Source: Dipteris shenzhenensis (lineage: Eukaryota). From it: 64,000 nucleotides of DNA. Of the stretch, positions 1,066 through 59,249 are shown piece by piece. The stretch lies in the NCBI GenBank assembly GCA_047967505.1, contig CM106538.1. One strand, given 5' to 3'. Each line of letters begins with the position of its first letter. Within the stretch, counting starts at the first letter, position 1. A program made the translations under genes and the position numbers. The notes under the pieces were generated by a model. The model had not been told where the DNA came from. It saw nothing but the letters and a program-made list of their open reading frames with translations, and did no database searches.

Positions 1066-4000
1066 TGGTATCAGAGCCTGGTTCGTGGTAAGGAGCTCAA
1101 GAAAGCAAACCAAGTTCACGGTGACCTAGTAAGAGGACCAGTGTTGCTTTCCTTTTTCAAGTTTGGGAGCAAATCTCTACAGGTAGCACAGCCAGAAAGT
1201 GCAAGAGTGCATTGTCTCAGATTGAGACGCCCTTCGCGGTGTGGCGAGAGGGCAGTATATGCTACGGGAAAGGGCGTCCACCTCCTTGAGAAAAAGGCCC
1301 TGTATTTGCTATGCGACCACTGCTCTGCATGTCGGTGAAAAGTTGCCGCAGAAATTGCATCGTATGCCTATGCGCAGAGATATTGGGAGTTATAGAATCA
1401 TCCTTATTGCCTGTTCATGCAAAATCATCACTAGGAAGTGACTGTGTGGTCAAATACCACTTTCGTCAGTTTTGCAGATTTGCCCTTGTGAGGCAGAAGC
1501 TTTGTTTTTTTGCAGTGATAGAATATTTTTCAGTGTTTTGTAATGGCGTCTGATTCTCTTTCACAGATTGTCACTGAAAAGCTTGACAAGAACAACTTCC
1601 AATCATGGAAGTTTAGAATGATGAATTTCCTTATGGGAAAAGGCTATTGGGAGTTCATTACATGAAATGAAGAAGAACCAGTTCTTCCTAATGTTCCCAA
1701 TCGACAGGAAATGCATGCATTTAAAGGATGGCATGAGAGAGCCAGAAAAGTTATGTATTGGCTGTCTATCAGTATTTCAGGTTCTATGATTGTGCATATT
1801 CAGGATGCAAGTACGCCAAAGGAGGCATGGGATACTTTGGCAAAAATGTACAGCACAAATACGCAAGCAAGGAAAATGTAGCTCAAGCAGGAGTTGCACA
1901 ATGTGCAGAGAGAAAATATGAGCATCAATGACTACCACATGAAGGTGAAGAAAATTGCGGATGCACTTGCTTCAATTGGGTCGCCAGTGGAAGATGATGA
2001 TTTAGTTTTTGTGACCTTGAATGGTCTAGGAAAGGATTATGCATAGTTCCGGACATCCATTGCTGTCCGTGAAAAATTTCCTAACTTTGAGGAGTTGTTT
2101 GCTCTTCTAATTTCTGAAGAGCGGAGAAATGGTGGTGCATCTTCTTCAGGAGGAACTTCAAAAGAAACTGTCTTCTACTCAAATGCTAGAAGACGTAGAG
2201 GCAGAGGTAGAGCAAGCCGATCTGGAGGCCATGGTAGAAATCAGGATATGCAGCAAACTCAAGAAAACCAATCCTATGGAGGAGGACGTGGTAACTCTAG
2301 AGGCAGGGGGAGCCAAAGAGGTCGTGGAGGATGGCAGAGAGGCCAAAATGCAAACAGCAATGTTGAATGCTACTACTATGGTAAAATGGGTCATATGGCT
2401 AAAGACTGCTATAAAAAGCAGAATGACATCATGAATGGAAAATTGCAGCAAGGGAATTATGCATCTTCTAGTAGACAGGGTGATGACAGAAATGAGCATC
2501 TATTTATGGTGCAGCACATGACCAATTCTGTGACAAGTGCAGAGGAAAGCAATGATGTGTGGTATGTTGACTCAGGTGCATCAAACCACATGACAAGTCA
2601 TGCGAATGGATGCAGGATGCAAGGAAAATGGAAAGACCAGGATTTGTGGAGTCTGGTGATGATACTGCACATGCTATTGTGCAGATTGGTAAAATTCCTT
2701 TGTCTATGCAGGATGGGAAAAAGAAATACCTATCTGATGTATTTCATGTCCTGAATATCACCAAGAACCTGGTTTCTATTGGTCAAATGGTTGTGCAGGG
2801 CTTGTAGGTCAGATTTAATCCTCATGGATGCTTTGTTGAGGATATGAAAAATAACGATCGCTTGATAGCAAAAGGAAAGAAGAAGGGCAAGATGTTTACA
2901 TTGGATGCGGACATGCCTGAATTGAGTGCAGCAATGTTTTCACATGGGACCAGTGTAGTTGCAAATATTGATATCTGGCATAAACGCATTGGTCATGTTA
3001 ATGTACAGCGACTTAAATCAATGCAGGCCCAAAATATTGTTGCAGGATTGCCTAAATTCAAGGTTGCAGAAATGCATAAGGTATGTGAAGCCTGTCAATT
3101 TGGAAAACATGCAAGGAAACCATTTCCTAGACATGTTCAAGAGAGTAAGAAGCCATTGGAATTAATCCACTCTGATGTGTGGACTACTAAAGCCGCATCT
3201 ATTGGAGGCTGTCATTATTTTGTCACTTTTATTGATGACTACAGCAGAAAAGTTTGGGTGTATTTTATGAAAAAGAAAAGTGAAGTGTTTGGGCATTTGA
3301 AAGCTTTTAAAGCTATGGTTGAAAAAGAAACAGGCCTGCAAATAAAATTCCTAGGGTCAGATGGAGGGGAAGAGTACCTCTCAAATGAGTTTGCAAGGTT
3401 CCTGCAGGAGCATGGCATAAAGCAGCAATATTCATGCAGTCATACCCCACAGCAAAATGGACTTACAGAAAGGAAAAACAGGCATATTGGAGAGGTATCT
3501 CGGGCCATGCTAAATGAAAAAGAGCTACCATATTATTATTGGGCTGAAGCAGTTGCTACAGTAGTTTACATAATGAACATGACTCCCACTGCAGCAATAC
3601 ATGGCATGACACCAGAGGAGATGTATACTGGTAGGAAACCAGATATTTCTCATTTGAAAATTTTTGGTTGCATTGCCTATGTTCATGTGCCAGATGAGTT
3701 GAGGTCCAAGTTGGATCCAAAAGCTGAGAAGTGCATCTTTATTGGTTATTCTCTGTAGCAGAAAGGGTATAGATGCTATAACCCTTCTACTCGTAAGTTT
3801 ACAGTGAGCAGAGATGTTGTTTTTTATGAGATGAGCAGCTGGTATAAACCAGTAAATGTGATTGATGATGTAGATGCACAAAATGGTAATGCTACACAGA
3901 ATTCACAACAGCAATCACAAAATATTAGTGGACCTGCAGTGTCCTCTAGCAGTGGTTCACATACTTCGCCATGGATAGGCAGATTGAGATCAGGAGAATC

Positions 4001-4530
4001 TCCTCAAATCAATGCAGATAGTGGTATGCAGGTATCACGAAAAGGAAAAGAGAAGGTAGATCAGCCCATGTTTGATGTGAATGCAGGTCACTCTTAGGTG
4101 GATGGTGAATCCAGTGGCTCAGAACAGAGCATTGATGATGAGTTGGTTATGAATTCCTTCTGTTGTTACACCTGGAGTAAGGAAGACTAAGGATGTTTTG
4201 AGAGCACCTGGAAGTGAGCCTATTTTGCACAGGTCTACCAGAGCTAGGTATCCTGTGGATAGGCTAAAATATGATGGATTTACAGCCATTCACTATGCCT
4301 ATATGGTCGAAGTGATACAGGAACCAGAACCCACTTCTTTTGAGCAAGCCATGGGAAAAGAAAAATGGGAGAAAGCCATGGACGAAGAAATGGATGCCTT
4401 GGAAGCAAATGCTACATGGGAATTGGTGCCTTTGCCTAAAGGCAAGAATGCAATTGGCTGTAAGTGGGTTTATAAGGTGAAGCACAATGCAGATGGTTCT
4501 GTGCCAGTTGTCATTTATTGTGACAACATG
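1066..4530 (+). mobile_element. Copia element 1 internal region: gag, protease, integrase; RT almost wholly deleted; breaks in RNase H
   Basis: EKLDKNNFQSWKF gag start, degenerate knuckle CYYYGKMGHMAKDC, WYVDSGASNHM protease, WHKRIGH/CEAC/LELIHSDV integrase; KVKHNADGS joined directly to [10 protein letters not shown]; several stops. Confidence 0.95.
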
Positions 4531-4666
4531 ACTGTGCAACGTCTTACATATATAGTGATGCAAATTTGGAATCTGTTGCATTTCCCAAACCATCTCAACG
4601 TGAATGTCAAGAATGTGAATGTCACATCGCAATGGATTCTAAGGGATGTGCGAGAACACCTTTTGG

Positions 4667-4913
4667 CTCAGGGGGGTCACTCATCATATGTAACCCTATC
4701 ACGTGAGTTCAAAAGAAGGATATTTTTTATTCCTAAAATTTACAGAAATAAATATACATAAGGAACTATTTAAAATAGTTTTGGAAAAAATTTACAGATT
4801 TGTATAGAAAAGGGGTACATTTTATTAATGAAAAAATTTACAGATAAGGGATTTTAAATATAGGCCTTCAACGCACGTGATATAGAGGGTTTATACATAG
4901 TGACCCCCCCGAG
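4667..4913 (+). mobile_element. MITE, copy 1
   Basis: TIR CTC(A)GGGGGGTCACT...AGTGACCCCCCCGAG; 8-bp TSD CCTTTTGG; empty site visible in paralog near 22667. Confidence 0.95.
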
Positions 4914-5341
4914 CCTTTTGGTCATGGACCTCGGACGGCATGTCAGAGTCCTTCTGCTTTATCTTAAATGGTGAGTAAGATCAACCACCGTGTGGAGAAG
5001 GTCATGGATAGTGCCAATTTCATTCCTTCTGCAACTTTGAAGATTGCTAACAATGTGTTTGACTAGTGCAACATTTAATTTTTCGTCTGTCAAATCCTAG
5101 TTATTGCTTCAAAAGATGATGGACAATTAAATTAAAAGTTATTTCTTTTAATGTTTTCTCCTTTCAGTTTATGGTAAATGTTTTACAAAAATTTGGGGAT
5201 TTTATGATTAATTAGGGTTTTGATATATATTAAAGGTTAGAGCCCTTTTTACATCACATTCTCACTTTCACATTTAGAGAGCCATAGAAACTCCCACCCT
5301 CAAAGTCACTCCCTCCATAAGCTCTGCTGCTGCTATTTGCC

Positions 5342-6857
5342 ATGGATTCCACTGAAACTACGTTCCATGACTTCATCTCACACACTGCATTTGCAAATCG
5401 TGAGGAAGAGCTATTTTTAGTGTTTGATAGGACTTTAGATGTCCAGGCACATATATGCGAGCCAAGGATGACTTCTCAGATCTCATCCTCTACATGCAAG
5501 ATAATTTCTCAAATTTTGCTTATACACTTGACCACTCTTCAAAGAGATGGGTTCGCATAGATTACATAAAGTCTATGTTCCTAGAGGAACAGATACTTTA
5601 TGTAAAGTGCTTGGCCTGCTTTTGTGATAACCTTATAGACGAAGGGTTTAGGACGGTCAAAGTTAAAGACATCCTAGATGCGGGGATCACGAGAAATACA
5701 GGCACAAAATTCCTTTCATGGGAGATGACATTCATCTTCCTTCTCCAAGAAGGAAACTTAGAGGAAGAAGCCTCATCCTCTAGCACCCCCTCTAGTAGAA
5801 TTGTTGATCTACTCTAGACTAGACTCGGACATGTACATGGAAGAGAGTCTTGATGATGCAATAGAGGAGATGGAAGCAGCTTAAGCATTGAGCCTACTTC
5901 AAGAGCCCCAAGTAGAGCAAGAATTTGCATCGGAGACCGCTGACCCACAATAAAAAATATGGTCCTTGTCCCCCCTCATCATCGATGGAGAAGAGTACAT
6001 ATTCCTCCATGACATAGAGGTTCTTTTTGGACTACAATAGGATGAGACACTCAGAGCCCTATCTGGGCTAGATGTTGACACAAGTGTCAAAGATCCCAAG
6101 GTTTTAGGTTCTGAAGAACAGACAATGGAAGAGTTTCTCTTGAAGATGCTAGTTTCAATGAGGGATGCAGACATGTCCATATATGCTGCACATCCCTCTG
6201 ATGTAGAAGCTTCCACCTCCAACACAGGGCAAGAGAAATGTCCACCTTCCAAATGGAACATCACATAGCACCTGGTTCCATCAACATTGCAAATGAAAAT
6301 GGGATAGAAGCCGACGACACTGTAGTGGTAAGTTCGAACAATATTTTTTATTTTGATGTTCTTTTGGTATACTTTGTTTTGTTGGTCTTCTAATGTTTGT
6401 TGAATTGTTGCAGGATGCATTTGAGCTTGATGAATTCTCATCTCGATGGGGTAATGTTCACAGTGCATTTGGGCGAGATCATTCTTTGGCCCATTACCTT
6501 GGCAAAGTCGCATAGCACATTGTGGTCTTCCATAACAAATTTTCTCCTCGAGGTCCTTCGAAGCTGCTAAAGTGCAAGCAAGGCATTGTCGCGTGCTATC
6601 GAATACTCCAACATTACTCAAAATACTAACAAAGTCATTTTGGTACACCACCTGGCTGCTATCAATGCCTTTGGATCAAACATTCATGGCAGGGCATTGA
6701 CGGCAGCAACTATCTTTGGCAATAGGAGAGGAGGATGTTAGTGCTATTGCATAGGTTTATATCTAGGAATCCACTAGGGGATTCAAAAACCCCTATTCTC
6801 AATGTACTCAAACTAGCCAAGAAGAAAGATAGCCTGCGAGGGCTTTTGTATATATAA
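5342..6857 (+). pseudogene. Two-exon gene of unknown function (X2) in the repeated X/Y unit
   Basis: Reading frame reconstructable across three copies (also 23095-24547 and 30640-32057 minus); GTAAGT...TTGCAG intron near 6328-6413; telo-box/TATA-like sequence upstream at ~5212-5233. Confidence 0.65.
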
Positions 6858-7067
6858 ACATATATTTCAATGGATACATGACTACATGTCTTTATTATTT
6901 GTTTTAAGTTATCGTTGCTCGTCATGAATTCATAATATTTATTCCATTGTATTTTGTTTAATTCATTGATGATATATTTTTTCCATCATTTTGATTGTGT
7001 TAATTTAATGCATTTCTTGCCAATTTAGTATCATTTTCACCAATTATGGGTATCAAAAGTTCATTTC

Positions 7068-7511
7068 TGTCAAATCCTGGAGGAATTTCATCGTGATGGA
7101 GAAGGGAAAAGTGTTCGGGATGTTGCCAAGAGCCTAGAAAGCCTAAAACCTGCCATGGCATGAATTTGAATGTCCAAATTCATCTCGGGGGGGTCACTCA
7201 TCATATGTAACCCTATCACGTGAGTTCAACAGAAGGATATTTTTTTTTCCTAAAATTTACAGAAATAAATATACATAAGGGACTATTTAAAATAGTTTTG
7301 GAAAAACTTTACAGATTTGTATACAAAAGGGGTACATTTTATTAATGAAAAAATTTACAGATAAGGGATTTTCAATAACGCACGTGATATAGACGGCTTA
7401 TACATAGTGACCCCCCCGAGAAATTCATGCCGTGGTGGGTTTTAGGATTTCTAGGGTCTTGGCGACGTCCCGGACATCTGCGCGACGGTGAAATTCCTTC
7501 AGGATTTGACA
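7068..7511. repeat. ~100-bp imperfect palindrome centred near 7170, split by a MITE
   Basis: Left arm TGTCAAATCCTGGAGGAATTTCA...CCTAAAACCTGCCATGGCATGAATTTG mirrors right arm CAAATTCATGCCGTGGTGGGTTTTAGG...TGAAATTCCTTCAGGATTTGACA once the MITE is removed. Confidence 0.9.
7184..7420 (+). mobile_element. MITE, copy 2
   Basis: Same TIRs; 8-bp TSD AAATTCAT (7176-7183, 7421-7428). Confidence 0.95.
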
Positions 7512-7705: not shown

Positions 7706-8678
7706 CTAGGGCTTCAAGCTTGGGTCACCCTATAGCCGCTTCGCCAGAGCCATGTACTTGTCCATGATCACGACACGCTTTGCGTGGATGGCACACAAGT
7801 TGGCATCCTCGAACAAAGCGGTGGTCACTTGCTCCATAGCCTCGTGGAGCGCTCCCATAGCTCCTGTGCTGAATCACACATCGTCCTTGTATCCCTGTGC
7901 TATCTCCCATACCACATGTTGGAAGGGAGCACGGGGGATCAGGTTGTCAGTGGTCTTCTACATCTGTCTGATCTCCCTTAGGGCCCGTTCTCCTGGCTTT
8001 GCTTTGTATGGCTTTCTGACTCTTGGTGGAGGCTTTATAGGTACTCGAACATGGTTTGATGGCCTCCTGTCTGGCTTGAATTTCTTATGCTTCTCTTCTC
8101 TACATTGATCCTCCTCTAGATCCCCCTCTCGCGGACGTCTTGAGCTTTGTCCTTCTTTGGGATGGGGCTTCCTCGGCGTGTGCTTTACCCTCTTCACTGA
8201 GAGAGGGAAGATTGTGCTCTTCCTAATAGTCTATTGGCCCTCATGAAGCCTCTCTATATCAGGGAGGTTATTGAATACATTTTGCTCATGCAGGGGAGTC
8301 CTCTCATGGGGAGGGGGAGGCTGAGGGGAAGGGAGCTTCTCAAATATATTTTGCTTGATTAGGGGAGTGCTCTCATGGGGAGGGGAAGGCTGAGGGTAAG
8401 GCTCATGCTCTTGGGGCTTGGGAGTGGGCTCACAAGACTGGGGAGTTGCGGCTCACAAGACTTGCGAGAAGGAGAAGGCTCATGAGACTGGGGAGTGGGA
8501 TCATGAGACTTGGGGGAGGGCTCATGAGAGATTGGGGAGGGCTCATGAGAGTAGGGGGAGGGCTCATGAGAGTTGAGGGAGGCTCACGAGAGTCATGGGA
8601 GAGCTCACAAGAGTTGGCAGAGGGCTCGCGAGAGTCAAGGGAGGCACCATCGGATAGGCTCGTGTACATAGATGCCAT
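7706..8678 (-). pseudogene. Divergent histone H3-like gene with long S/P/E/H-rich N-terminal extension
   Basis: Manual translation: [97 protein letters not shown] aligns without gaps to the H3 fold; upstream 21-nt repeats at 8430-8600. Confidence 0.9.
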
Positions 8679-8766
8679 GGAGGTGGTGGAGCTAGAGGAG
8701 GAAGGGTGGAGGCAGTGTCTTGTGGGTCTAGAAGCGTTCTTCACTCTTGCAATTGAATAATGAGAG

Positions 8767-8837
8767 TTAGGGTTTTTTAAAACGTTTTATATAGGCCCAT
8801 CATATTTTGACACCCCTTTTAATTATGTTTAGGGTTT
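8767..8837 (-). promoter_or_regulatory. Putative promoter of the H3-like gene: two telo-boxes, site II motif, TATA
   Basis: Minus strand reads AAACCCTAAA (8837-8828), TGGGCC (8799-8794), TATATAAA (8793-8786), AAACCCTAA (8775-8767) upstream of the ATG at 8678. Confidence 0.55.
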
Positions 8838-8974
8838 CATTGTGTCCCCCTCCCCCGCCCTAACCCCTCCAATCCCCCCCACCCTCGTTGCCCTTCTCCC
8901 CTTTTTCCCTCCCCCCTACTTGCCCCCCCCACACCCATTGCCCTCCCCCATACCCCCCATCCCCCCCTTTCACA

Positions 8975-11176
8975 AAATGCTTTCTAGTATTCCCAACCCA
9001 AACTGCTTTGAGACAATGTATGTTTGTCTTTGTCGAGATTGTGGTTCGATAGGAATCTCCTTGCCTTCCCTCCACCCATGGACATTTTTGTAGGAAGTTT
9101 CTGTGTTGCCCTAGACATTTTCTTATCCTCCTTAACTTTGACATGTCCTCCATGGAATCCCATCTCTGACAGAAACTTCTCAGCTTCTACAATGCACCGT
9201 GTGGATAATTCTTGCAAAATTAAATTCCAAGCATAAACAAGATGCAAATACAACAACTTATCAAGTACACACAGTTTTGCATGTAAAGTATATATGTGTA
9301 CTCTCTCAAGTGGGATGGGCAAGATGGGATCCACTTTGGATCCTTCTCATCATGATTGGGAGCTTATGTTTGGCTGCAAGATAGAATGCCATTCTCCCAT
9401 TGTAAGCCAGCCTTTTGCTTACGTTGCAAACACATGCAATAAAGGCATGTGTTCATTGCATTTGCCCCTGTATCACAACCATGCAAGCACTTGAGGGTTT
9501 TCAAATCACCAACAAGATGCCATTCAACTCGAAATGTTCCATGGCCATCAACTGTCAATGTTTGCCCTTCCTCTTGTCTTCAGATCCATCATTGATGGGA
9601 TTCCTGTTCTATCTAGAACCCACCTCAATGTCTTGTGGCACTCTTTCAGAGTCTCAAATGTTGCAAGCCACCATATATCTTTCTCTCATTGCACTGAGAA
9701 ATATTTCTCTACTTCTTCATTCCCTTGAACAAAGGCTAAGGATTTATTCATAATGTAGATGCTCACTCTCTCTAACTTGTGTTCTTTCACCAATTGAGCT
9801 TCATCCATTTTGATGACAAATATGAGATTTCCATTGCAATCTATACAACAAAAGAGAGAAATCGTTAGGATAAACATGATATAGGAAATGAACTAAGTTA
9901 AGTGCAATGCTATAATGGATTTTCTCTTACCATCTTCTCTCATGCCATAGAATTTGACCATTTCTTGTTGGAGTTTCTCAACATCTAAGTATACATTGTT
10001 AAAAGCATTCATCTCAAAGGTTTGCAAGCCAGATTTCTTAATACTCTTCCAAGTCATTGTGCCCCTTACGCAATGGTACCCTCCAAGCATTACTCTTGCA
10101 TGTTGGTTTATCTCTTGCCATGCACGTCTCATAGACCAAGGTGTGGGTAGGGGCATTGTAGGCTTCTTATACTTTCCCAAAATAGTAGACTTGAAAATTT
10201 TGAAAACAGATGTGTAAGCTTCACGACTTACACCGGTAGTATCACAAGCTGCAAGCATCTCCTTTGCATCCAAAATATCCTTGAAGTCCTTCATCACCTC
10301 TTCAGCAACTTGCACACATAGGCGCTTGTGTCTTGGGTCCCGTAGTATCCCAATGACATCACTTGACTTCAATAAACTAGCTAGAGCATATGAACAGTCA
10401 ATATCATCCCCGTTCGCTCTTCCCAGCACATAAAACTTAGTCACAAATAGTGTAGCCCAGAAGTGTGTAATTTCATTGGAACATTTGATAACCAACCTTG
10501 TATCCCGGACTCTCCTCTTTCTAGCACCACCAGTGGGTGCCAATGCATCCATGTTATGTAAGTACCTTCTTTTCCTATCCTTCAATCCCAAAGGTGTTTC
10601 TTTCATCTTTTGCACTCGTTCTTATGCCTTCTCTCGTTCCTTCTCTATGGCTTGCCGAACTTGATTGTATATAGATCTTTCCAAGCCTTTTTTGGACTCA
10701 ACTAGCTTACAAAATGACTCTTCTAATTTATGTTGCTCCAAGTCCAATGCTTTGGATTTATCATGAAGATCTTGATTCTTCCTTTAAAGATCCTGCATAG
10801 AGTTATGCATTGTAAAAATGGTGCTATTTCCTAAATGTGCTAGCATCTCTTCTTAGGATCTGTGCATCTTGCTTGCTTGCATAGCCATTGATTGAGCATT
10901 GGTTAATCGATTGCAATAACCAAGCAACCCTGCATGTCCATTTCCAACAAACCAAACTAGCTCATGCATTGTATGGAAAGGAGAGATCTTTTGGTTGGCA
11001 GGATTTAAAGGATACAAGAATCCTTCTACCCAAAGGTCTAGATGCTTCTTTCCTTGCAAACAGAGATTGTGGATTTTGGAAGCTCCCCTCAATCCCAGAC
11101 TACATGTGCTTGCATATTCAACCTCTAACTCTAAGTGAACTTGGTACTTATTGGAGACATCCTCGAATGGTGCCAT
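8975..11176 (-). pseudogene. RAG1/Transib/Chapaev-like DDE transposase, intron-containing, C-terminus deleted
   Basis: IFVIKMDE, WHLVGDLKTLKCLHG..ANAMNTCLYC, PILPIPLERVHIYTLHAKL, KMSMGGGKARRFL; phase-matched intron 9930-9841; N-terminal coiled-coil-like region; frameshifts and stops. Confidence 0.7.
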
Positions 11177-11209
11177 GAGTAAAGGAGTCTAGAGAAGGAG
11201 AAGGTGTGG

Positions 11210-11710
11210 AGAAGCAGGCTTGAAGGATCAGCATGCAAAAAGAGGGAGGGCGAGGAGGAGGAGGGAGGACCAGTAGTGGAAGAGGAGGGAAGGGGGGCAG
11301 ACCAGCAGGTGTGGAGGTTGAGGAGGAGGCATGGAGGAGGAGGGAGGAGTAGGAGGGAGGGGGAGGAGGAGCAGGCGTGGAGGAGGAGGGAGGGGGAGGG
11401 GAGGAGGAGCAGGCATGGAGAAGGGAGGGAGGCAGGAGTGGGGGAGGGAGGGAGGGGGAGGGTAGGAGGAGCAGGCATGGAGGAGGGAGGGAGGGAGGGG
11501 GAGGAGGAGGAAGGGCGAGGAGGGAGTGAGGAGGGGGAGCGGGAGAAGGGGGGAGGGGGAGGAGGAGGGAGGGGGAAGGGGGAGTGAGGAGGGGGAGGGA
11601 GGGAGGGGGAGGAGGTGGGAGGGGGAGGAGGGAGTGAGGAGGGGGAGTGAGGGAGGGGGAGTGAGGAGGGGGAGGGAGGGAGGGAGGAGAGAGAAGGAGG
11701 GAGGGAATGC
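11210..11710. repeat. Polypurine/polypyrimidine low-complexity tract upstream of the transposase
   Basis: GGA/GGGA-rich repeats; inverted homolog at ~29030-29520. Confidence 0.9.
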
Positions 11711-13031
11711 AAAATTCATTTTTAAAATTTTGAATTTGTTGGTTCCCACCTAGGAGTAAGAGTTGTGTAAGAGGTGTAACAATTGTTGGTTCCCACTTAG
11801 GAGTAAGAGTTGTGTAAGAGGTGTAAGTGGTGGGGTCACTTTTGGGCTTAACCCATCTAGGTGAGGGGGGGTTAGGACTTTTTGGAACCTACCTTGGCCC
11901 TTTCATTAGGACTAATCCATTTCTTAATCCATTCCTTATGAGGCCCTTTCAAGGCCCCGATTATCCCCTAATGTCTCTTCACAAAGTACTTCTAGTTGAG
12001 GATGTTAAAGGACCAGATTGAAAATTTCATGTCTAAGTCCTATACCCATGCTAGCCATCTTGAATCTTAACTTATGTACTTCATTAAGTTCATGTAAACT
12101 ACGATCACTCTTTGTGCTTGTCTCATGCCCATTGAGTCTCTTTTCTTTACAGCCTCATGATTCCTTATAAAAATCTCGCAATGCATATTTCCATGTATTA
12201 GATTGATTCACCAATTGGGTTGCTCAATATAATATGCAAATGTGCAATTACATGCAAGCTGAAAATAAATAGTGCTTTAAATGACAAACAATATCAATCA
12301 AGAATCCATGCATCATATTGCATTGGTAGATGTGCTATCTATAATGCCAAATCTAAAAAGAAAAGAATATATAAGTGATATCATCAAGTCTCGTGACTAT
12401 GCAATGTCTTACATATATAGTGATGCTAATTTGGAATCTGTTGCATTTCCCAAACCATCTCAAAAAATTATCACAAACAAGAGCATGAAACTGTGGGGAG
12501 CATATTGTATGATCAATCACAAGTAAATATATCGTTGTGAAGTATTAGAGAAAACTTTTTATCTATGGCAATTGACTAGCTAGTGTAGTCACTACTTAGG
12601 TTGATACCTATCCACCAATGTCTATGATTGTCTCCCTAAGTTCTCCATTTCTCATTCATTATAATTTCTATCCACCAATGTCCATGGTTTTCTCCCTAAG
12701 TTCTCCATTTCTTGTCTATTTGAATGGTCAATTCACTATTTATAGTGGAGTTATTAGGGATGGTAGAGAGTTTGCACTGATCAATTAAACAATATAGTTA
12801 TGGGGTATGGAATAGAGTTTACAATTCCCACTTAACAAAGGGTAGTCAAGGAGTAATTGCACCTATTTCAAGGAGGGAAACAATACACAACTACAGCTCT
12901 TTCCAACAATAGACAAATAAATTTGCCAATGCTACACAATCCCTTGTTTATTTCCTACTCTAAGCTCTCCTTGCTTGAATTGTGCTTCATGCACACAGTT
13001 GTAGGATTTTGTGGCATACACAATTACTCAC

Positions 13032-16000
13032 TGTTGAGAGTTGTGGTGCCATGAGCACATAATTAGAGGCTAAGGTATGGTATAGGAACGAATTAAAGTA
13101 GCCACCCTAGGATGTGGACTACATGATGTGGAGATGTGGATTGAGGATATCCACAAGGAGAGATGTGGATGAGAGGATCCCACATGGTTTGACTATTCTA
13201 AAGGCTCTCTCTATATAAGAAGCCTATCATGTATTGTTGAGTACACATATTGCAATAGATTGAGAGTTTGTTACCCTATGTCTCTCTTGTGGTTCTTTGA
13301 TCCCCCTTGATCCCTCACTTTGTCATGGTATCAGAGCTCCCCTGTCTTTCGTTGAGACATGGTGATCCTTGCGTGAGAGTGTGAGAGATCTAGAGCAAGA
13401 GAAATTTCTGTCCACTATTCTTTTTGTGTGAGAGAGAGATTCCTTGTGAGTTCTCCTTTTGAGAAAAATAGAGAGAGAGTGAGCGAGAGCTTAGATATTC
13501 ATTCCTGTGAGAGAGAGATAGAGGTAGTCCTTTTCTTCGATCCACAAGAGACAGACTCCAAGTTTCAACGACTCTCTAGCTACAACGGACTACAGCGACT
13601 TCAGCTAAAGCTAATCTAGCCAACAAAATCCACCGATGGCCAGCGCTACCTACATCCCACAACCACAATGAAGGCCACGGCTCTAGCAGCTTCAACAACC
13701 ATCATGCTTCGCGGCATTCTGCATGAACGGTGACAGCCTCCAACAAAAGCACCACAACCTCATAGCTCCTTGACTCTCTCCGTAGCCAGTCGAGATGCCT
13801 AAATGGCCTAATGCCCGGATCTGCAGCAGCCAGCAAAGAGTAGGCCATGGAGATTGTCGAAAGCCTTCCACTCCAGGATCTCCCGGATCGGTAGTGACAT
13901 CACTTAAGAGCTTAGCTGCAGAAAACACGCAACACTCGGTGAGTCTGATGCGAAACAAAGCTCCGCGGCCAGCACCATGCTAGTGGAGAGCATGGTCGAA
14001 ATGGGCGATGACTTCTTCTCTGCCTTTTTGAATTTGGTAGCCAGCTGTGGATTCAGAGTTCCTTCAACTCTTGCAACCTGCAATAGATGCCCGCTCTTGC
14101 TCCCTACTCAACAAATGACACCGAGTCCATAAGCCTCAACGTCCTCTCCATCACCACACCCACGCAAAGTGTCCTCTCCATCGCTGTAGAGAAGCAAAGC
14201 TCTCTCTTTTTCCTTCCCTAAGGTTAGACCTTAGGCCATGTGGCAGTCCCTTGATAGGACACATGGTAGATAAGCCACTCAACCCCATGACCTTAGGTTC
14301 GCCTATGGTTGAGTTCATCTGCTTGGGTTAATGTAACCATGGTACAGTTTTTGTAACCCTAGTTTAAATAAGCTGGGTTAAAGGGTCACCACAGTGACAC
14401 CTCAGCACAGTAACCGCTTGCTAAGAACTGGTTTGTAAGCAGCATGTGACTCCCTATGCCACATCACCAACTGCCCCTCTTCTTCACAAAAACTTCGACA
14501 AGCTATAACTTGCAATCCAAGAAGAATTTGCACACGCTCCAAAAAGAAAAAGTGATTGTCTTTTCGAGCTCTACGCACCTGTCAACTAAGATTTTTTGTA
14601 TGCAATTAGAGACTGCTAGATTTGAAAGTATCTTCAACTGGTAAGACCTTTGCAATGGCAATACACACCCAACTACTGAGAAGTTCACTGGGGAAGGATT
14701 CCACATGTGGTCTACACAAATGAGGTATCTCCTGATGCATCAAAAGCTTTGGAAGACTGTAAAAGAAGAAATACCCACTGCACAAAATGATGCCTGGAAG
14801 GAAAAAGATGAAGCCGCACTATCACTCATTGGTTTGCACTTGGGTCCAAACATAATTCATCATATAGACTCCAAGGATCATGCCAAAGATGCATGGGATG
14901 AGTTGAACATAGTGTTTGGTGCAAAAGCCAAAAACCAAGAAATCCATCTTAAGATTGAATTCTATGGTATGCACATGGGCTTCAATGAATCCATGGCACA
15001 ATTTGTCTCGGGGGGGTCACTCATCATATGTAACCCTATCACGTGAGTTCAACAAAAGGATATTTTTTATTTCTCAAATTTACAGAAATAAATATACATA
15101 AGGGACTATTTAAAATAGTTTTGGAAAAAATTTACAGATTTGTATAGAAAAGGAGTACATTTTATTAATGAAAATTTTACACAGATAAGGGATTTTAGAA
15201 ATATACCTTGAACGCACGTGGCATAGAGGGTTTATACATAGTGACCCCCCCGAGCAATTTGTCAACAAGATCAAAAGCATTATGACCCAACTAGAGGGCA
15301 TAAATGTAAAAGTAGGAGAGAAAGATGCACTTGCAATTCTCCTTAAAAGCATGCCTGCAGAGTACAGTGCACTGACAACCACTTTGAAGAATTTGCCAAA
15401 TCCAAAGTTTGAGGAATGTGTATCCTCTCTTCTTGAAAAAGAAAGAGAGTTTAAGGTATCGACATCGACATCGACATCTACACACAACAGCTATAATGAA
15501 GAACAAGCACTATTCAGTAAAACATCAACGAAGTGCTAGCATTGCGGAAGGATGGGTCACTATCAAAGTGACTATAGACTAAAGAACAAACCAAAGTGTC
15601 ACCATTGCAAGAAGCTGGGACACAAGGAAGAAGATTGTAGATTGAAGAACCAGCAGGTCAACTACATAGCATCGTCATCAAGCCATGATCCAAATGGTGA
15701 CATCAATGGAATGTATTGAGAAACAAAAACCTTGCCAACCTTGGCTATATTTTGTAATCAAACCTGACCACCTGAGAGTAGCTATGAAAGCACCCAGGGG
15801 AGGTATTGACATGTAAAAGCCACACTTGACCACCTTAAGTAGCAATGCAAGCATTAAGGGGAGGTGATGGAATGTAACTCACATCTGTCCACCTTGCAGT
15901 AGCCAAAGGATCATGGCACCAAGGGGAGTTGTGGTGACATGAGCACATAATTAGAGGCTAAGGTATGGTATAGGAAAGAATTAAAGTAGCCACCCTAGGA

Positions 16001-19300: not shown

Positions 19301-19474
19301 ATAGTGCAAAGTGCTTGATTGATATTACTTCAAATGAACCTCCCTTTTATAGGTGAGGGTACTTACATCCATATGCTTGCTCACATGTGGGATATCTCCT
19401 CCAAGCCATGTGGCAGCTTGCCCTTTACTCATACCTTTGCTCTACATGTGCTCATGGCACCACAACTCTCAACA
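16362..19474 (-). mobile_element. Non-autonomous gag-only LTR retrotransposon (TR-GAG-like), element B2
   Basis: LTRs 16362-16693 and 19143-19474; exact TSD AGTTG; PBS and PPT in place. Confidence 0.93.
16905..17678 (-). CDS. gag: Copia-type Gag (257 aa, open frame)
   Basis: EKFTGEGFHTW..., AWDEL, two zinc knuckles CYHCGRMGHYQSDC and CHHCKKLGHKEEDC. Confidence 0.9.
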   Translation of the reverse strand: MAIRTPTVEKFTGEGFHTWSTQIRYLLMHQKLWKTVKEDIPTAQNDAWKEKDEAALSLIGFHLGPNIIHHIDSKDHAKDAWDELNTVFGAKAKNQEIHLKIEFYGMHMGINESMAQFVNKIKSIMTQLEGINAKVGEKDALAILLKSMPTEYSALTTTLKNLPDPKFEECASSLTSTSTCNSYNEEQALFSKTSTKCYHCGRMGHYQSDCRLKNKPKCHHCKKLGHKEEDCRLKNQQVNYTASSSSHEPKGDINGMY

Positions 19475-19751
19475 AGTTGCAAGGCAGAGTCCTTTTTGTG
19501 GGTGTTGACTTCAAGCCATGATTTCACCATACTCATGAGGCCTTACATATTGATTGTATACCTTTCTCAAAAGTTCCACATGTTGCGGGGGTATGAGATC
19601 AATAGAGATGTAGGAGATCATTAGATGGAAATGTAGCCGAATAGTCTTCTCACATTGCTTTGTTAGCTTAGTAAATTAAGAGAATGGGGGGTCTGACATA
19701 CCAGGCTAGCTACCTGTTGAGTGTAGTCTAAAACAATCTAAGATTGTGATG

Positions 19752-19793
<42 letters not shown>

Positions 19794-22027: not shown

Positions 22028-24547
22028 TGCATGCGGGAGAGAAGTTGGACTCCTTGCGAATGAAGAATGTGTATTGGTATAATGCAACATACATCACTCC
22101 AATGACATCATCAAGCTATGGCCGTCTGTGAACCATTGCACCACCACAACTTCAAGACATGGATTGCAGTAATGTGGACTTGGGGACATTGCAATTGTAC
22201 AAGGACAAGATTGCAAAGGATGTGGACATGGCCATGAAGTTTACATTTGGATCCAAATGGGCAAGCTTATCTTCGTTTATGCCTCTGCACATTTTTGCTT
22301 CTTTGTTTCAGAATATACATATGCATAGAATAAAAACTATGTGGTCCTACAAGCGTGTAGATGAAAATGCTCCTGAAGATTTACTTGGGATGAATTGGGG
22401 AACCAGATCAGGTGACCAAAAGGGTGATGTGTTTCAATGTCATGCATGTAAAGACAATGTGGTTATTAGATACCATTTGTCATGCCAAATGTTGTATTTA
22501 GCTTTTCAATATAGGTGGTGGAAGAAAACAAATGGCCGGTGGCTTCCCCTAGACTCTAATGATGAAGACAATACGGGGGTACGTTTATCTATTGATGTTG
22601 AAGAGGGAGATGTCGAGAATGTGAATGTCACATTGCAATGGACTCTAAGGGATGTGCGAGAGAACACCTATTGGCCATGGAGGACGGCATGTCAGAGTCC
22701 TTCTGCTTTATCTTAAATGGTGGTAAGATCAACCGCCGTGTGGAGAAATGCATGCATAGTGCCAATTTCATTCCTCCAACTTTGAAGATTGCTGGCAATG
22801 TGTTCGACTAGTGCAACATTTAATTTTTTGTCTATCAAATCCTAGTTATTGCTTCAAAAGATGATGGACAATTAAATTAAAAGTTATTTCTTTTAATGTT
22901 TTCTCTTTTCAGTTCATGGTAAATGTTTTTCAAAAAATTTGGGGATTTTATGATTAATTTTAATTTGTAGGGTTTTGATATATATTAAGCCCTGGGTTAG
23001 AGCCCTTTTTACATCACATTCTCACTTTCACGTTTAGAGAGCCATAGAAACTCCCACCCTCAAAAGTTACTCCCTCCGTCAGCTGCTATTTGCCATGGAG
23101 TCAGCTAGAACTACGTTCCATGACTTCAATTCATGAACTGCATTTGTAGATCCTGAGGAAGAGCTATTTTTAGTGTTTGATAGGACTTTAGACATCCTAG
23201 GCACATATATGCGAGCCAAGGATTACTTCTTAGATCTCATCCTCTACATGTAAGATAATTTCTCATATTTTGGTTATACACTTGACCACTCTTCAAAGAG
23301 ATGGGTTCCCATTGATTACATAAAGTATCTGTTCCTAGAGGAACCCAAGTTTGTAAAGCGCTTGGCCCGCTTTTGTGACAGCCTTACAGAGGAAGGGTTT
23401 AGGACGGTCGAAGTTAAAGACATCCTAGGCATGGGGATCACAGGAAATACAAGCAAAAAATTCCTTTCATGGGAGATGACATTCATCTTCCTCCTCCAAG
23501 AAGGAAATTTAGAGGAAGAAGTCTCATCATCTAGCACCCCCTCTAGTAGAACTATTGATCTACTCATCCCTAGACTAGACTTGGACCAATACATGGAAGA
23601 GAGTCTTGATGATGCAATAGAGGAGATGGAAGTAGCTCAAGCATTGAGCCTACTTCAAGAGCCCCTAGTAGAGCAAGAATTTGCATCGGAGACCACTGAT
23701 CGAGAATCAAAATTATGCTCCTTGTCCCCCCTCATAATCGATGGAGAAGGGTACGTATTCCTCCATGACATAGAGGTTCTTTTTGGACTACGAGAGGATG
23801 AGACACTCGGAGTCCTATCTAGGTTCGATGTTGACACAAGTGTCAAAGATCTCGGGGTTTTAGGTTCCGAAGACCAGACAATGGAAGAGTTTCTCTTGAT
23901 GATGCTGGTTTCAATGAGGGATGCAGACATGTCAATATATGATGCACATCCCTCTGATGCAGAAGCTTCCACCTCCAACATAGGTCAAGAGAAAGTGTCC
24001 ACCTCCCAAATGGAACATCAGCACCTAGTTCCATCAACATTGCAAATGAGGAAGGGATAGAAGCCGACGACGCTGTAGTGCTAAGTTCGAATAATATTTT
24101 TTATTTTGATGTTCTTTTGGTATAATTTGTTTTGTCGGTCTTCTAATGTTTATTGAATTGTTGCAAGACACATTTAAGCTTGATGAATTCTCATCTCGAT
24201 GGGGTAATGTTCATAGCGCATTTGGGCGAGATCATTCTTTGGCCCATTACCTTGGCAATGTCGCAAAGCACATCGTGGTCTTTCACAACAAATTTTCTCC
24301 TCGAGGTCCTTTGGAGATACTGAAGTGCAAGGCATTGTCGCGCACTATCAGATACTCCAACATTACTTGGAATGCCGACAAAGTCATTTTGGTACGCTGC
24401 ATGGCTGCTATCAATGCCTTTGGATCGAACATTCATGGCAGGGCATTGACGGCAACAGCTATGTCTTCGGCAGTAGGAGAAGAGGATGTTAGTGCTATTG
24501 TGGCTAGGTTTATATCTAGGAATCCACTAGGGGATTCAAAGACCCCT
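22028..24547 (+). pseudogene. Fragment of the X/Y unit (genes X1 and X2) lying between the two duplicated blocks
   Basis: Homologous to 4604-6795; ORFs 22159-22716, 23362-24060 and 24146-24547. Confidence 0.85.
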
Positions 24548-25701
24548 CTGCCAATGGTCTCGTTGCATGTAGTGTGAGGATGTCGGGTTGAAGCTAGGAT
24601 GACTGCGCTATTGGAGTTGACATAATTTTAGGAGCCACCATACTTTAGTCGATATGCTTTGAGCTCGTTGATGGAAGTCTTTTGAGAAGCCAAGAGCTAT
24701 TGCAGAGCTGACTAAAGTTATTGTGCTATGTGCTTGCTGGGAGTGTCAATGTTCCTATCAGATCTCTTTCAATAGAGAGATTATTTCTCCCTATGAATAT
24801 GAACCTTTGAAGCTCTCTCTCACAATTAAATTTCTCTCAATCTCATGGAGGAAATGACACCTCTATTCCTCACGAATCAACTCTCACAAACTAAATCTCT
24901 CTCTCAACAAAATGAATGGATGGAAAATCCTATCACATGAACGAAAATTTCTCTATCAAAATATGGATGAAGATCTCTCACCGGAAGTGGACTCTAATGG
25001 AGAACACTCAAGAGAACTCTCAATCTCACAATCTCTCTCATGCTCTCAAGGATCGCAATGCCTCAGTGGAAGGCAAGGGTGCTCTAATACCATGTTAAAG
25101 CGCATGGACCAAGCTCTCCTATGGACCCTAATCTACTCTAATGACAACACTAATCTAAGGTGGATGAATCCTAAGAGTGATCATGATTTATAACTCAAGT
25201 CAATTAGGTTCCAAGATAGATTAGCTCGGACTCATAAAGAGAATCTTGAGATAGTGCAAAGTGCTTGATTGATATTACTTCAAATGAACCTCCCTTTTAT
25301 AGGTGAGGGTACTTACATCCATATGCTTGCTCACATGTGGGATATCTCCTCCATGCCATGTGGTAACTTGCCCTTTACTCATACCTTTGCTCTACATGTG
25401 CTCATGGCACCACAACTCTCAACAAGTTGCAAGTCAGAGTCCTTTTTGTGGGTGTTGACTTCAAGCCATGCTTTCACCATACTCATGAGGCCTTACATAT
25501 TGATTGTATACCTTTCTCAAAAGTTCCACATGTTGCGGGGGTATGAGATCAATAGAGATGTAGGAGATCATTAGATGGAAATGTAGCCGAATAGTCTTCT
25601 CACATTGCTTTCTTAGCTTAGTAAATTAAGAGAATGGGGGGTCTGACATACCAGCCTAGCTACCTGTTGAGTGTAGTCTAAAACAATCTAAGATTGTGAT
25701 G

Positions 25702-25743
<42 letters not shown>

Positions 25744-25858
25744 ATTCCAATGATGGACAAGGAATGAGAAAGAGTGCACCTCTATGTCTATCTATGTGTG
25801 TGTGTGTGCGTGCACACGTGTGCATGCTTGCGTGCATGTGTGTGTGTGTGCGAGTGCC

Positions 25859-25931
<73 letters not shown>

Positions 25932-28386: not shown

Positions 28387-31300
28387 TCACAAGACTTAAT
28401 GATATCACTTATATATTCTTTTCTTTTTAGATTTGGCATTATGGATAGCACATCTACCAATGCAATATGATGCATGGATTCTTGAGTGATATTAGTTGTC
28501 ATTTTAGGCACTATTTAGTTTCAGCTTGCACTTAATTGCACATTTGCATATTGTATTGAGCAACCCAATTGGTGAATCAATCTAATACATGGAAATATGC
28601 ATTTATGCAATGCATTGCAAGATCTTTATAAGGAATTATGAGGCCATAAAGAAAAGAGACTCAATGGGCATGAGACAAGCACAAAGAGAGATGGTAGTGT
28701 ACATGAACTTAATGAAGTACATAAGTAAAGATTCAAGATGGCTAGCATGGGTATAGGACTTAAACATGAGATTTTCAATCTAGTCCTTTAACATCCTCAA
28801 GTAGAAGTAATTTGTGAAGAGACATTAGGGGAGAATTGGGGTCTCAAAAGGGCCTCATAACGAATGGATTATGAAATGGATTAGTCCTAATGAAAGGGCC
28901 AAGGTAGGTCCCAAAAAGTCCTAACCCCACCTTGCCTAGGTGGGTTAAGCCCAAAAGTGACCCCACCTCTTACACAACTCTTACTCCTGAGTGGGAACCA
29001 ACAAATTCAAAATTCAAAATTCGAATTTTGAATTCCCTCCCTCCTTCTCTCTCCTCCCTCCTTCTCTCTCCTCCCCCCTCCCTCCCCCTCCTCCCTCCCC
29101 CTCCCTCACTCCCCCTCCTCACTCCCTCCCTCCTCCTCCCCCTCCCTCCCTCCCTGCTCCCCCTCCCCTCTCCTCCCATCCCCCTCCCCCTCCTCACTCC
29201 CTCCTCCCCCTTCCTCCTCCTCCCCCTCCCTCCCTCCCTCCTCCACGCCTGCTCCTCTAACCCTCCCCCTCCCTCCCTCCTCCATGCCTGCTCCTCCTCC
29301 CCTCTGCCTCCCTCCTCCTCCACCAGTGCTCCTCCTCCCCCCTCCCTCTTGCTCCTCCCTCCTCCCTCCCTCCTCCTCCATGCCTACTCCTCCTCACCCT
29401 CCACACCTGCTGGTCTGCCCCCCTTTCCTCCTCTTCAACTACTGTTACTCCCTCCCCCATGCCTCCTCCTCCTCTCCCTCCCTCTCCTTGCGTGCTACTC
29501 CTTCAAGCCTGCATCTCCACACCTTGTCCCTCTCTACACTACTTTAGTCATGTAACCATCCGAGGACGTCTTCGACAAGTACCAGGTTCACTTAGAGTTG
29601 GAGGCTAAATATGCAAGCACACGTAGTCTAGGATTGAGGGGAGCTTCCAAAATCCACAGTCTTCGTTCGCAATCAAAGAAGCATCTCGACCTTTGGGTAG
29701 AAGGATCCTTGTATCCTTTAGATCCTGCCAACCAAAAGAGCCCTCCTTTCCATACAATGCATGAGCTAGTTCAGTTTGTTGGAAATGGACATGCGGGGTT
29801 GCTTGGTTATTGCAATCGGTTAAACAATGCTCACTCAATGGCTATGCAAGCACGCAAGATGCGTAGAGCCCAAGTAGAGATGCTAGCACATTTAGGAAAT
29901 AGCACCATTGTTGCAATGCATAACTCTATGCAGGATCTTCAAAGGAAAAATCGGGATCTTCATGATAAAGCCAAAGCATTGGACTTGGAGTGACATAAAT
30001 TAGAAGAGTCACTCTGTGAGCTAGCTGAGTCTAAAAAAGGCTTGGAAAGATCTATATACAATCAAGTACAATGAGCTGTAGAGAAGGAACGAGAGAAGGC
30101 AGAAGAACAAGTGCAAAACATGAAAGAAACACCTTTGGGATTGAAGGAGAGGAAAAGAAGGTACTTACATAACATGGATGCATTGGCACCCACTGGTGGT
30201 GCCAGAAAGTGGAGAGTTCAGGCTACAAGGTTAGTTGTCAAATGTTCCAATGCGATTACACTCTTTTGTGCTACACTATTTGTGACTAAGTTTTTATTGT
30301 GTTCTTCTTTTAGAACTTCATCATTTGAAGATGTGATGGGAAGAACGGATGGGGATGATATTGACTGCTCATATGCTTTAGCTAGTTTATTGAAGTCAAG
30401 TGATGTCATTGGGATACTAAGGGACCCAAGACACAAGCGCCTACCTGTGCAAGTTGCTGAAGAGGTGATAAAGGACTTCAAGGATATTGTGGATGCAACA
30501 ATTAAAATGATGGAGAAAATATATCATCAACTTAAAAAAAATACAATGGAATTCATGACGAGCAATGATAACTTCAAACAAATAATAAAGACATGTAGTC
30601 ATGTATCCATTGAAATAACCATTTTAATATATGTTTATATATACAAAAGGCCTCATAGGCTATCTTTCTTCTTGGCTAGTTTGAGTACATCGAGAATTGG
30701 CATCTTTGAATCCCCTAGTGGATTCCTAGATGTAAATCTAGTTGCAACAGCACTAACATCCTCCTCTCCTGCTGCCAAAGACATAGTCATTTGCTGTCAA
30801 TGCCCTGCCATGAATGTTGGATCCAAAGGCATTGATAGCATAGCCAGGTGTACCAAAATGACTTTATCAGCATTCTAAGTAATGTTGGAGTATCCGATAG
30901 CGCATGACAATGCCTTGTACTTCAGCAGCTCTGAAGGACCTTGAGGAGAAAATTTGTTGTGAAAGACCACGATAGGCTCTGCGACTTTGCCAAGGTAATG
31001 GGCCAAAGAATGATCTCGCCCAAATTAACTGCAAACATTACCCTATCAAGATGAGAATTCATCAAGCTCAAATGCATCCTGTAACAATTCAACAAACATT
31101 AGAAGACCGAAAAAACAAATTATATCGAAAGAACATCAAAATAAAAAATATTGTTCGAACTTACTACTACAGTGTCATCGGCTTCTATCCCTTCCTCATT
31201 TGCAATGCTGATGAAACCAAGTGCTATGTGATGTTCCATTTGGGAGGTGGATGCTTTCTCCTGACTTGTGTTGGAGGTGGAAGCTTCTGCATGAGAGGGT

Positions 31301-32057
31301 TGTGCATCGTATACGGACATGTCTGCATCCCTCATTGAAACCAGCATCATCAAGAGAAAGTCTTCCATTGTCTGCTCTTCAGTACATAAAACCCCTAGTA
31401 TCTTTGACTCTTGTGTCAACATCGAAACCCGATAGGACTCCGAGTGCCTCATCCTCTCATAGTCCAAAAAGAATCTCTATGTCATAGAGGAATACGTACT
31501 CTTCTCCATCGATGATGAGGGGGGACAAGGACCATAATTTTGAGTCTGGGTCAATGGTCTCCGATGTAGATTCTTGCTCTACTGGGGGCTCTTGAAGTAG
31601 GCTCAATGCTTGACTTGCTTCCATCTCCTCTGTTGGATCATCAAGACTCTCTTCCATGTACATGTCCGAGTCCCAGATCAACACTTCTACTAGAGGGGGT
31701 GCTAGATGATGAGGCTTCTTCCTCTAAATTTCCTTCTTGGAGAAGGAAGATGAATGTCATCTCCCATGAAAGGAATTTGGTGCCTGTATTTCCTGTGATC
31801 CCTGCATCTAGGATGTCTTGAACTTCGACTATCCTAAACCCTTCGTCTGTAAGGTTGTCACAAAAGTGGGCCAAGCACTTGACAAACTTGGGTTCCTCTA
31901 TGAACAAATACTTTATGTAATCTATGGGAACCCATCTCTTTGAAGAGTGGTCAAGTGTATAAGCAAAATTTGACAAATTATCTTGCATGTAAAGGATGAG
32001 ATCTGAGAAGTCATCCTTGGCTTGCATATATGTGCCTAAGACATCCAAAGTCCTATC
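28387..32057. mobile_element. Inverted, internally deleted copy of the X/Y unit (transposase 5' half fused at ~30497 to X2)
   Basis: 28387-30497 is the reverse complement of ~10265-12396; 30498-32057 is the reverse complement of ~5425-7000; H3 gene and palindrome absent. Confidence 0.9.
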
Positions 32058-59113: not shown

Positions 59114-59249
59114 AAAACAAATTGAAACATAATGTTTTGCTAATCAAATCTAACCAAATAGTGTCCAAATATAAATCAGAATGTAGGTACAAATGTTTTA
59201 GTTGAGCATTTGTGTCTACAACTCTAATTAACAAGATCACTCACATTCC

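Follow-up and report, generated by a model that had tools for sequence, protein, structure and literature searches.

The CACTA-Mirage-Chapaev-Transib (CMCT) clade of DNA transposons is described as comprising EnSpm/CACTA, Mirage, Chapaev, Transib, Plavaka and ESTA as well as Lanisha, with RAG1 and Transib as the only members of solved structure (Kojima 2025, PMC12730594). RAG1 arose from this clade. The same account gives 5'-CA..TG-3' as the termini and 2-5 bp as the length of the target-site duplications, and reports for another lineage of the clade a match to RAG1 in HHpred (PMC12730594). Here, a transposase pseudogene (copy A) was analyzed that lies on the minus strand of a 64,000-nucleotide stretch of Dipteris shenzhenensis DNA (contig CM106538.1, assembly GCA_047967505.1), referred to as a whole as the window. 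Very probably, copy A is a dead transposase gene from a multi-copy transposon of the cut-and-paste type (class II, DDE), and its protein family belongs to the CMCT clade. Most likely, this family forms a lineage of its own, distinct from both canonical CACTA and Transib proper, and it may be the Lanisha superfamily that was proposed from moss.

The similarity of copy A to database proteins is, as judged from the alignments, far beyond chance. Using tblastn, residues 4-675 of the relative P0002 (764 aa) were aligned to window positions 11149..9038 with an E-value of 1.6e-89, and P0070 was aligned to 9307..8969, which carries the homology down to position ~8969. Of 3117 candidates, two proteins (764 and 783 aa, E ~1e-37) were matched by the translation of 9548-10783 with X at the stops. 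In a HMMER search with P0002 against 1.84 billion representative sequences, 542 relatives were found at E ≤ 1e-3, of which 281 also passed 1e-10 and 46 passed 1e-30. Nearly all of them are short fragments, as is expected for decayed repeats. The named relative P0154 is a hypothetical protein of the fern Adiantum capillus-veneris. No Pfam family was found above threshold, either in the pieces of the window or in the protein family.

The intact family protein has a length of ~800 aa or more. Its N-terminus carries the conserved motif HLDLW.DG..YP.DP...PPF, followed by a coiled coil of ~100 residues and then by the core. The core motifs are, in this order, an Asp in FVxKLDE, an Asp in EWHLAGDLKTLK, a CxxC 20 residues further on, IPLxRVHICTLHA, THY-H-x4-H and a Glu in QGMEKSH. 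The motif of the second Asp is conserved as EWHLAGDLKTLKC, with PCIYC following 20 residues past the Asp. The C-terminal end, which is absent from copy A, is carried by four fragments and reads THY[IM]H-x4-H-xP....GS....W..QGME[KR]SH...A. The Glu is located exactly 20 residues past the second His of H-x4-H (P0052, P0154, P0134 and P0031). Many relatives run into a second conserved intron directly after THYM; P0052 (contig of 1134 bases) looks like a spliced transcript.

In mouse RAG1, the catalytic residues are given as D600, D708 and E962 and the zinc ligands as C727/C730 and H937/H942 (PMC4914335). The two Asp and the Glu are conserved across the present family, in which both CxxC and H-x4-H are also present. 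Copy A keeps both Asp codons, but is without the Glu and the H(4)H. The distance between the two Asp is 106 residues in the family and 108 in RAG1, and the CxxC follows the second Asp after 20 residues compared to 19 in RAG1. By its spacing and structural range, the CLYC of copy A is the counterpart of C727/C730.

A profile of five C-terminal sequences was compared with all PDB sequences, which resulted in 20 matches at E ≤ 10. The top 15 were all RAG1 (E 0.0032-0.034) and the other five were ribosome recycling factor (E 0.23-1.7). A gap-free alignment of 38-52 residues sets the family sequence itHYmHilyaHgPyfvkeyGslaiWktqgmE onto RAG1, placing the H-x4-H on H937/H942 and the Glu on E962. Pfam RAG1 (PF12940) was the sole family matched by the C-terminal fragments (three of five, best E 0.0019). 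Across the 116 aligned family members, RAG1 was likewise the sole Pfam family with more than one match (two members). Outside the H(4)H-Glu motif no similarity to RAG1 could be detected by sequence. The family is a distant relative of RAG1 and not a RAG1 orthologue.

For the structural comparison, P0002 was modelled with AlphaFold2 on 116 aligned relatives, 25 misplaced N-terminal fragments having been dropped from a 141-fragment MAFFT alignment. The mean pLDDT of the model was 77.5, with values above 90 in the core. The Foldseek search against the PDB resulted in 45 matches at E ≤ 0.001. RAG1, amphioxus BbRAGL or HzTransib made up all matches listed to rank 49 (best E 3.5e-7), whereas rank 50 was the P element transposase with an E-value of 0.028. 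VIA-align, run on the candidates of Foldseek, gave a Z-score of 16.4 for RAG1 (4wwx_B; 381 residues, root mean square deviation 5.6, model residues 286-764 on RAG1 473-943), 14.8 for BbRAGL, 14.4 for HzTransib, 8.5 for the P element transposase and 5.3 for Hermes. In a scan of 48,161 representative chains that was independent of Foldseek, seven chains were found at Z ≥ 8. Six of these were RAG1, RAGL or Transib (Z 12.6-16.4 over ~310-380 residues, yet with an identity of ~10-15%) and one was the P element transposase (8.5). The remaining chains were coiled-coil matches to model residues 75-182.

The core of the P0002 model superposes on RAG1 from the DNA-binding/dimerization region (DDBD) through the pre-RNase H and RNase H domains to the zinc module. 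The order of modules, DDBD/pre-RNase H, RNase H and split zinc module, is the same as in RAG1, BbRAGL and HzTransib (4WWX, 6B40, 6PQN, 6PQX). Since no longer protein including the C-terminal part was found in the search of relatives, two overlapping fragments, P0002 and the C-terminal P0052, were folded instead. The P0052 model is confident to residue ~190 and weaker after it. It matched RAG1 with a Z-score of 10-11 (residues 10-197 on RAG1 790-958) and HzTransib with 8.7, while the next, unrelated row reached 5.3. The offset of these ranges sets H176/H181 of P0052 on RAG1 937/942 and E201 on 962.

In the ESM Atlas, the nearest named clusters by protein-language-model features were the nematode DUF1280 (0.93; 182 of 256 features) and RAG1 (0.85-0.89), both of which are leads only. 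The structural neighbours included clusters of Mucoromycota and Streptophyta, RAG1 and, lower, a Transposase_21 cluster. Using HMMER, no match to DUF1280, which we take to be Mirage-type proteins, was found for P0002 or P0003, nor among the 25 of 67 Pfam families listed for the 116 members.

The anatomy of copy A agrees in large part with the sequence-only reading of this DNA. Every protein string quoted there is present in the minus-strand translation and belongs to one gene, and the proposed layout in parallel to RAG1 was recovered (D, D, CxxC ~20 residues on, an LH-containing motif and a deleted third catalytic part). The minus-strand frame, interrupted by stops, spans 11188 to 9548 and continues in two further frames after the frameshift, to 8984. 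Splicing out the intron (Table 1) joins GMRED to DCNGNLIFVIKMDE, as in the relatives. Five in-frame stops were identified at 10853-10855, 10784-10786, 10622-10624, 9686-9688 and 8984-8986, and two frameshifts near 9580 and 9330. One contig of a DNA run contains an extra C at the 9330 position, so the frameshift is private to copy A. The third catalytic region was said to be gone after WEY-stop-KAFCE. Indeed, the homology ends at ~8969, whereas the relatives continue with LGWEYWKPWCEC to THY-H(4)H...QGMEKSH.

The C-terminal part with the H(4)H and the Glu was found nowhere in the 64 kb (tblastn; phmmer over all six-frame open reading frames, ORFs). Copy A is nonfunctional, given its five stops, two frameshifts and lost C-terminus, and the loss of the H(4)H zinc ligands and of the catalytic Glu makes it inactive. 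In three RNA runs with the same organism label, no read was found over 8772-12500, and only 5-13 reads were found on the whole 8 kb at an identity of at least 90%.

A histone H3-like fragment is located inside copy A at 7733-7873 (minus), probably reaching ~8030 (Pfam Histone, E 1.2e-11, covering positions 75-121 of the 122 in the profile). The fragment has the orientation of the transposase, with the G-rich tract on one side and a repeat resembling a miniature inverted-repeat transposable element (MITE-like repeat) on the other. Capture of host-gene DNA is one possible origin, and the rearrangement in which the transposase C-terminus was lost is another. The H3-like stretch is deleted in copy B, so its membership in the element family is not assignable.

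Table 1. Positions of the features of copy A, of its related copies and of their boundaries in the window.
Feature	Position	Strand	Basis or remark
Transposase pseudogene, copy A	8969..11176	minus	ATG to last codon homologous to relatives (~8969); translations, tblastn
ATG of copy A	11176-11174	minus	Start MAPFEDVSNKYQVHLELEVEY, agrees with N-termini of database relatives
Intron, 90 nt, GT..AG, phase 1	9930..9841	minus	P0128 and P0002 alignments skip the stretch
First putative catalytic Asp codon	9803-9805	minus	In VIKMDEAQL at 9791-9817; family consensus FVxKLDE
Second putative catalytic Asp codon (EWHLVGDLKTLKC)	9505-9507	minus	In HLVGDLKTLKC at 9487-9519; conserved in family
CxxC (CLYC), 20 residues past second Asp	9436-9447	minus	Within TCLYCM at 9433-9450
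Conserved His of IPLxRVHICTLHA; copy A reads HIYTLHAKL	9281-9283	minus	Family conservation and structure
PILPIPLERVHIYTLHAKL	9272-9328	minus	Translation
SSLGWEY, then TAG, then KAFCE	8984-9007	minus	Translation
TAG replacing Trp of relatives (LGWEY-stop-K versus LGWEYWK)	8984-8986	minus	P0070 alignment row
G-rich (minus-strand) low-complexity and 21-bp-repeat DNA in place of C-terminal quarter	8260..8968		
Copy A 3' region common to B and C	4604..6998	minus	Broken by 250-bp MITE-like repeat at 4667-4913
C/T-rich low-complexity leader between 5' end and ATG	11230..11715	minus	Counterpart in copy B at 29034-29487
5' boundary common to A and B	12372..12395	minus	A: CACGAGACTTGATGATATCAC; B: CACAAGACTTAATGATATCAC at 28388; flanks unrelated
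Copy B	28388..32057	plus	28388-30498 equals A 12395-10264 (84% identity), joined directly to equivalent of A 6998-5426 (87%)
Copy C, 3' region of element only	22620..24556	minus	Equals A 4604-6804, 89% identity
Direct repeat of copia pol, 70 bp, bracketing copy A	12394..12463 and 4529-4598	plus	95.7% identical

Copies B and C (Table 1) are further, partial copies of the element within the window. As its alignment to A shows, copy B is an internal-deletion derivative that keeps only ~the first 274 codons. Copies A and B start at the identical base with CAC(G/A)AGACTT(G/A)ATGATATCAC and their flanks are unrelated, which marks a genuine 5' end. The first bases are CACGAGA in A and CACAAGA in B, and the 5' end of the element begins with CA(C). 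With up to 6 mismatches allowed in 24 nt, no inverted copy of the 5' end was found in the window. When the 5' ends were locally aligned to the reverse complements of the 3' boundaries, scores of 14-21 resulted compared to 16.2 ± 2.9 for shuffled sequences, and no terminal inverted repeat (TIR) is claimed. The homology of A and C stops near 4604/22620, which is a possible 3' end of the element; an opposite-strand ORF of copy C runs across this boundary. When translated, the C/T-rich leader mimics proline/serine-rich ORFs of up to 246 aa.

Decayed ORFs were also observed in the 3' region on the strand opposite to the transposase. In copy C they are located at 22132-24574 (plus) and encode 194, 268 and 155 aa, with equivalents in A (plus) and B (minus). 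Neither a Pfam family nor an ESM Atlas neighbour was found for them. They may represent a second, convergent gene of the element or an unrelated nested repeat.

One DNA run with the same organism label contains 843 contigs on the 8-kb stretch at an identity of at least 90%. Of these, 62 are found at ≥99%, 143 at 95-99% and 638 at 90-95%. Copy A is hosted by a Ty1/copia element, for which an integrase (2808-4094) and the start of a reverse transcriptase (4153-4530) were identified using Pfam. The 70-bp duplication that brackets copy A (~7.8 kb) is far longer than any target duplication made by a transposase. This points to a different route of insertion or repair, or else to rearrangement at a later time.

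The assignment to the CMCT clade has several results against it. The TM-scores of Foldseek were low (0.29-0.44), which is expected for a multi-domain model yet weak. The helix with the catalytic Glu was modelled at low confidence (pLDDT ~50-55), and the predicted fold comes from two overlapping fragments instead of an intact copy or full-length protein. The best PF12940 score was 15.8 bits, under the curated 25 bits. With the core profile of 116 sequences, the PDB search at E ≤ 10 yielded only two chance-level zinc-ribbon matches (E 1.1-1.4) and neither a RAG1 nor a Transib chain; P0002 alone gave one chance match. The sequence link to RAG1 is real but thin, consisting of one motif, marginal E-values and a profile of five sequences. 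In addition, the Atlas cluster with the CACTA domain Transposase_21 resembles the model (TM 0.39/0.54), so structure alone cannot separate lineages within the clade. Finally, we infer cut-and-paste mobility from the protein and the copy structure only, as neither a TIR nor a short target-site duplication was found in the window copies, none of which has both natural ends.

RAG1 and Transib being the only solved CMCT members, the fold match to RAG1 shows membership in the clade, not in Transib. The sequence-only reading had described the gene as RAG1/Transib-like. This holds at the level of the CMCT clade, by fold and H(4)H-Glu motif, whereas Transib as the superfamily was not established. The doubt expressed there about the exact superfamily stands, since the RAG1 match does not separate the CMCT lineages. 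Its view that CACTA TnpD features are lacking is consistent with the finding of no CACTA Pfam domain in P0002, P0003 or the C-terminal fragments. Strong structural matches were obtained for RAG1, BbRAGL and HzTransib only.

Among the described lineages, Lanisha is an evident candidate for the identity of the family. It was proposed in 2020 from Ceratodon purpureus, a moss, and is called a "previously undescribed superfamily" (Carey et al. 2021, PMC8245031). It is the sole CMCT lineage besides CACTA that is reported from a land plant in these accounts, and, like RAG1, it is said to have C(2)C and H(3-4)H, its similarity to EnSpm being described as only weak (PMC8245031, PMC12730594). The present family, with RAG1-like motifs and no CACTA Pfam domains, agrees with this description, and both it and Lanisha are land-plant cut-and-paste lineages of the CMCT clade that are missed by standard classifiers. 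Lanisha is known from C. purpureus and the named relative found here is from a fern. The match is circumstantial, being made by description and not by sequence comparison. The chance that the family belongs to Lanisha is considered slightly below even; it would then be already described, but barely characterized.

A placement in the Transib superfamily proper, as a plant branch of the direct RAG1 ancestor lineage with 5-bp duplications and CAC-heptamer termini, is unlikely. RAG1, RAGL and HzTransib are the top structural matches, and these matches extend upstream of the RNase H domain into pre-RNase H and DDBD. The H-x4-H spacing and the Glu exactly 20 residues past the second His are as in RAG1, and Pfam RAG1 was the only Pfam family touched. 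However, HzTransib scored below RAG1 (Z 14.4 versus 16.4), so that no special closeness to Transib itself is seen. For known Transib transposases, the link to RAG1 is described as similarity at the BLAST level that covers ten motifs (PMC1131882). In the present family, by contrast, sequence comparison detects a single conserved region, and with the core profile neither RAG1 nor HzTransib was recovered. Compared to RAG1 and Transib, the family has an extra N-terminal motif, a long coiled coil, introns, a 1.2-kb leader and an element of more than 7 kb instead of the 3-4 kb of Transib.

For Transib, a 5-bp target-site duplication and a 38-bp TIR with a CACAATG heptamer and an A-rich nonamer have been described (PMC1131882). 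The 5' boundary of A and B begins with CAC, and copy B reads CACAAGA against this heptamer. Positions 1-3 of the 5' ends fit, the rest not clearly. A 5-bp duplication, an inverted 3' end and a nonamer were not seen in the window copies, and no evidence of a RAG2-like partner was found here. Plants were reported as free of Transib in 2005 (PMC1131882). A literature search for Transib in Viridiplantae or ferns yielded only repeat-masking tables and passing mentions, and no description of a plant Transib-like family. A related view, also held to be of low probability, takes the family as the branch of the Transib/RAG1 lineage in green plants, with Transib and not CACTA as its sister. The DDBD, pre-RNase H, RNase H and split-zinc-module architecture and the exact H-x4-H-x19-E geometry of RAG1 would then have been retained.

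It is considerably less probable that copy A is an ordinary CACTA/EnSpm pseudogene of the TnpD type, too decayed to show its domains. The relatives were tested too, and P0002 and P0003 contain no Transposase_21, DUF4218 or Transpos_assoc at E ≤ 1. None of the five C-terminal fragments has a CACTA domain at E ≤ 10, and the 25 of 67 Pfam families listed for the 116 members include no CACTA family. The 5' ends of the two copies read CACGA and CACAA, not CACTA. In CACTA elements, the two His are spaced by 3 residues, and in the present family by 4. The likeness to plant CACTA/EnSpm lies in the clade, the catalytic logic, the CAC-starting ends, the repeat-rich subterminal DNA and the large elements with extra DNA, as well as in the Transposase_21 cluster among the Atlas structural neighbours. 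CACTA is also the common plant member of the clade, and a CxxC as well as two His ahead of the Glu are described for it (PMC12730594).

A remnant of a domesticated RAG1-like host gene, for which the intron, the second conserved intron of the relatives and at least one transcript-like relative (P0052) could speak, is the least probable explanation, given three decayed copies in 64 kb with one internal-deletion derivative among them, the common 5' boundary of A and B with unrelated flanks, the nesting of copy A in a copia element and the hundreds of diverged contigs in one DNA run.

Several other repeats were observed around the element. The MITE-like repeat of ~250 bp is located at 4667-4913, 7177-7425, 15000-15259, 63467-63718 and 45353-45498, with copies 88-93% identical and a very high contig depth in the DNA run. 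Two copies lie within element A. Internal inverted repeats of 35 and 56 nt are found around the copy at 7177-7425, and one of the two shows a CCAAAAGG duplication at 4914/4660. A 3.4-kb repeat is present in two direct copies at 18592-22027 and 24545-27985 (96.5% identical, offset 5953 bp), which flank the 2.5 kb holding copy C; shorter pieces are found at 714-1067. These repeats may have arisen by tandem duplication or be the long terminal repeats of a non-autonomous retroelement. Copy B has its junction, at 30498, exactly one 5953-bp offset further on, which may be a coincidence.

The stretch at 55181-55723 (minus) was considered as a fourth copy on account of P0128 and was rejected, since P0128 is a chimeric gene model with a Ty3/gypsy-type integrase as its N-terminal half. 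The stretch itself is a Ty3/gypsy-type integrase pseudogene with internal stops. Possible host genes were found at 58448-60302 (minus) and 61247-62848 (minus), with a SET domain (E 1.3e-4), a NIF/CTD-phosphatase-like region (E 1.4e-12) and a 534-aa ORF without a Pfam family.

As judged from RAG1 and HzTransib, an intact family protein would bind the catalytic metals through the two Asp and the Glu, and one zinc through the CxxC together with the H(4)H. The enzyme is predicted to nick the transposon ends in a metal-dependent manner, to form hairpins on the flanking DNA and to transfer the strands of the excised element into a staggered target.

Taken alone, the locus is a dead transposon copy of the ordinary kind and has no function; its family is a plant lineage that is poorly annotated and shows a RAG1-like core of unusual clarity. 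In standard annotation, a plant repeat family without a Pfam label would stay "unclassified", yet this one reproduces the RAG1 core from the DNA-binding/dimerization region to the zinc ligands and the Glu. RAG1, which assembles antibody and T-cell-receptor genes, descends from a transposase, and the spread of its architecture helps to date and root this origin. The family profile can be used for the annotation of fern and other large plant genomes. If the family were sister to Transib, Viridiplantae (ferns, possibly algae) would have harboured the ancestor of the V(D)J recombinase, and this would imply an origin before the split of plants and animals or an ancient horizontal transfer. If it belongs to Lanisha or another CMCT branch, a poorly described lineage gains a description at the level of structure and motifs.

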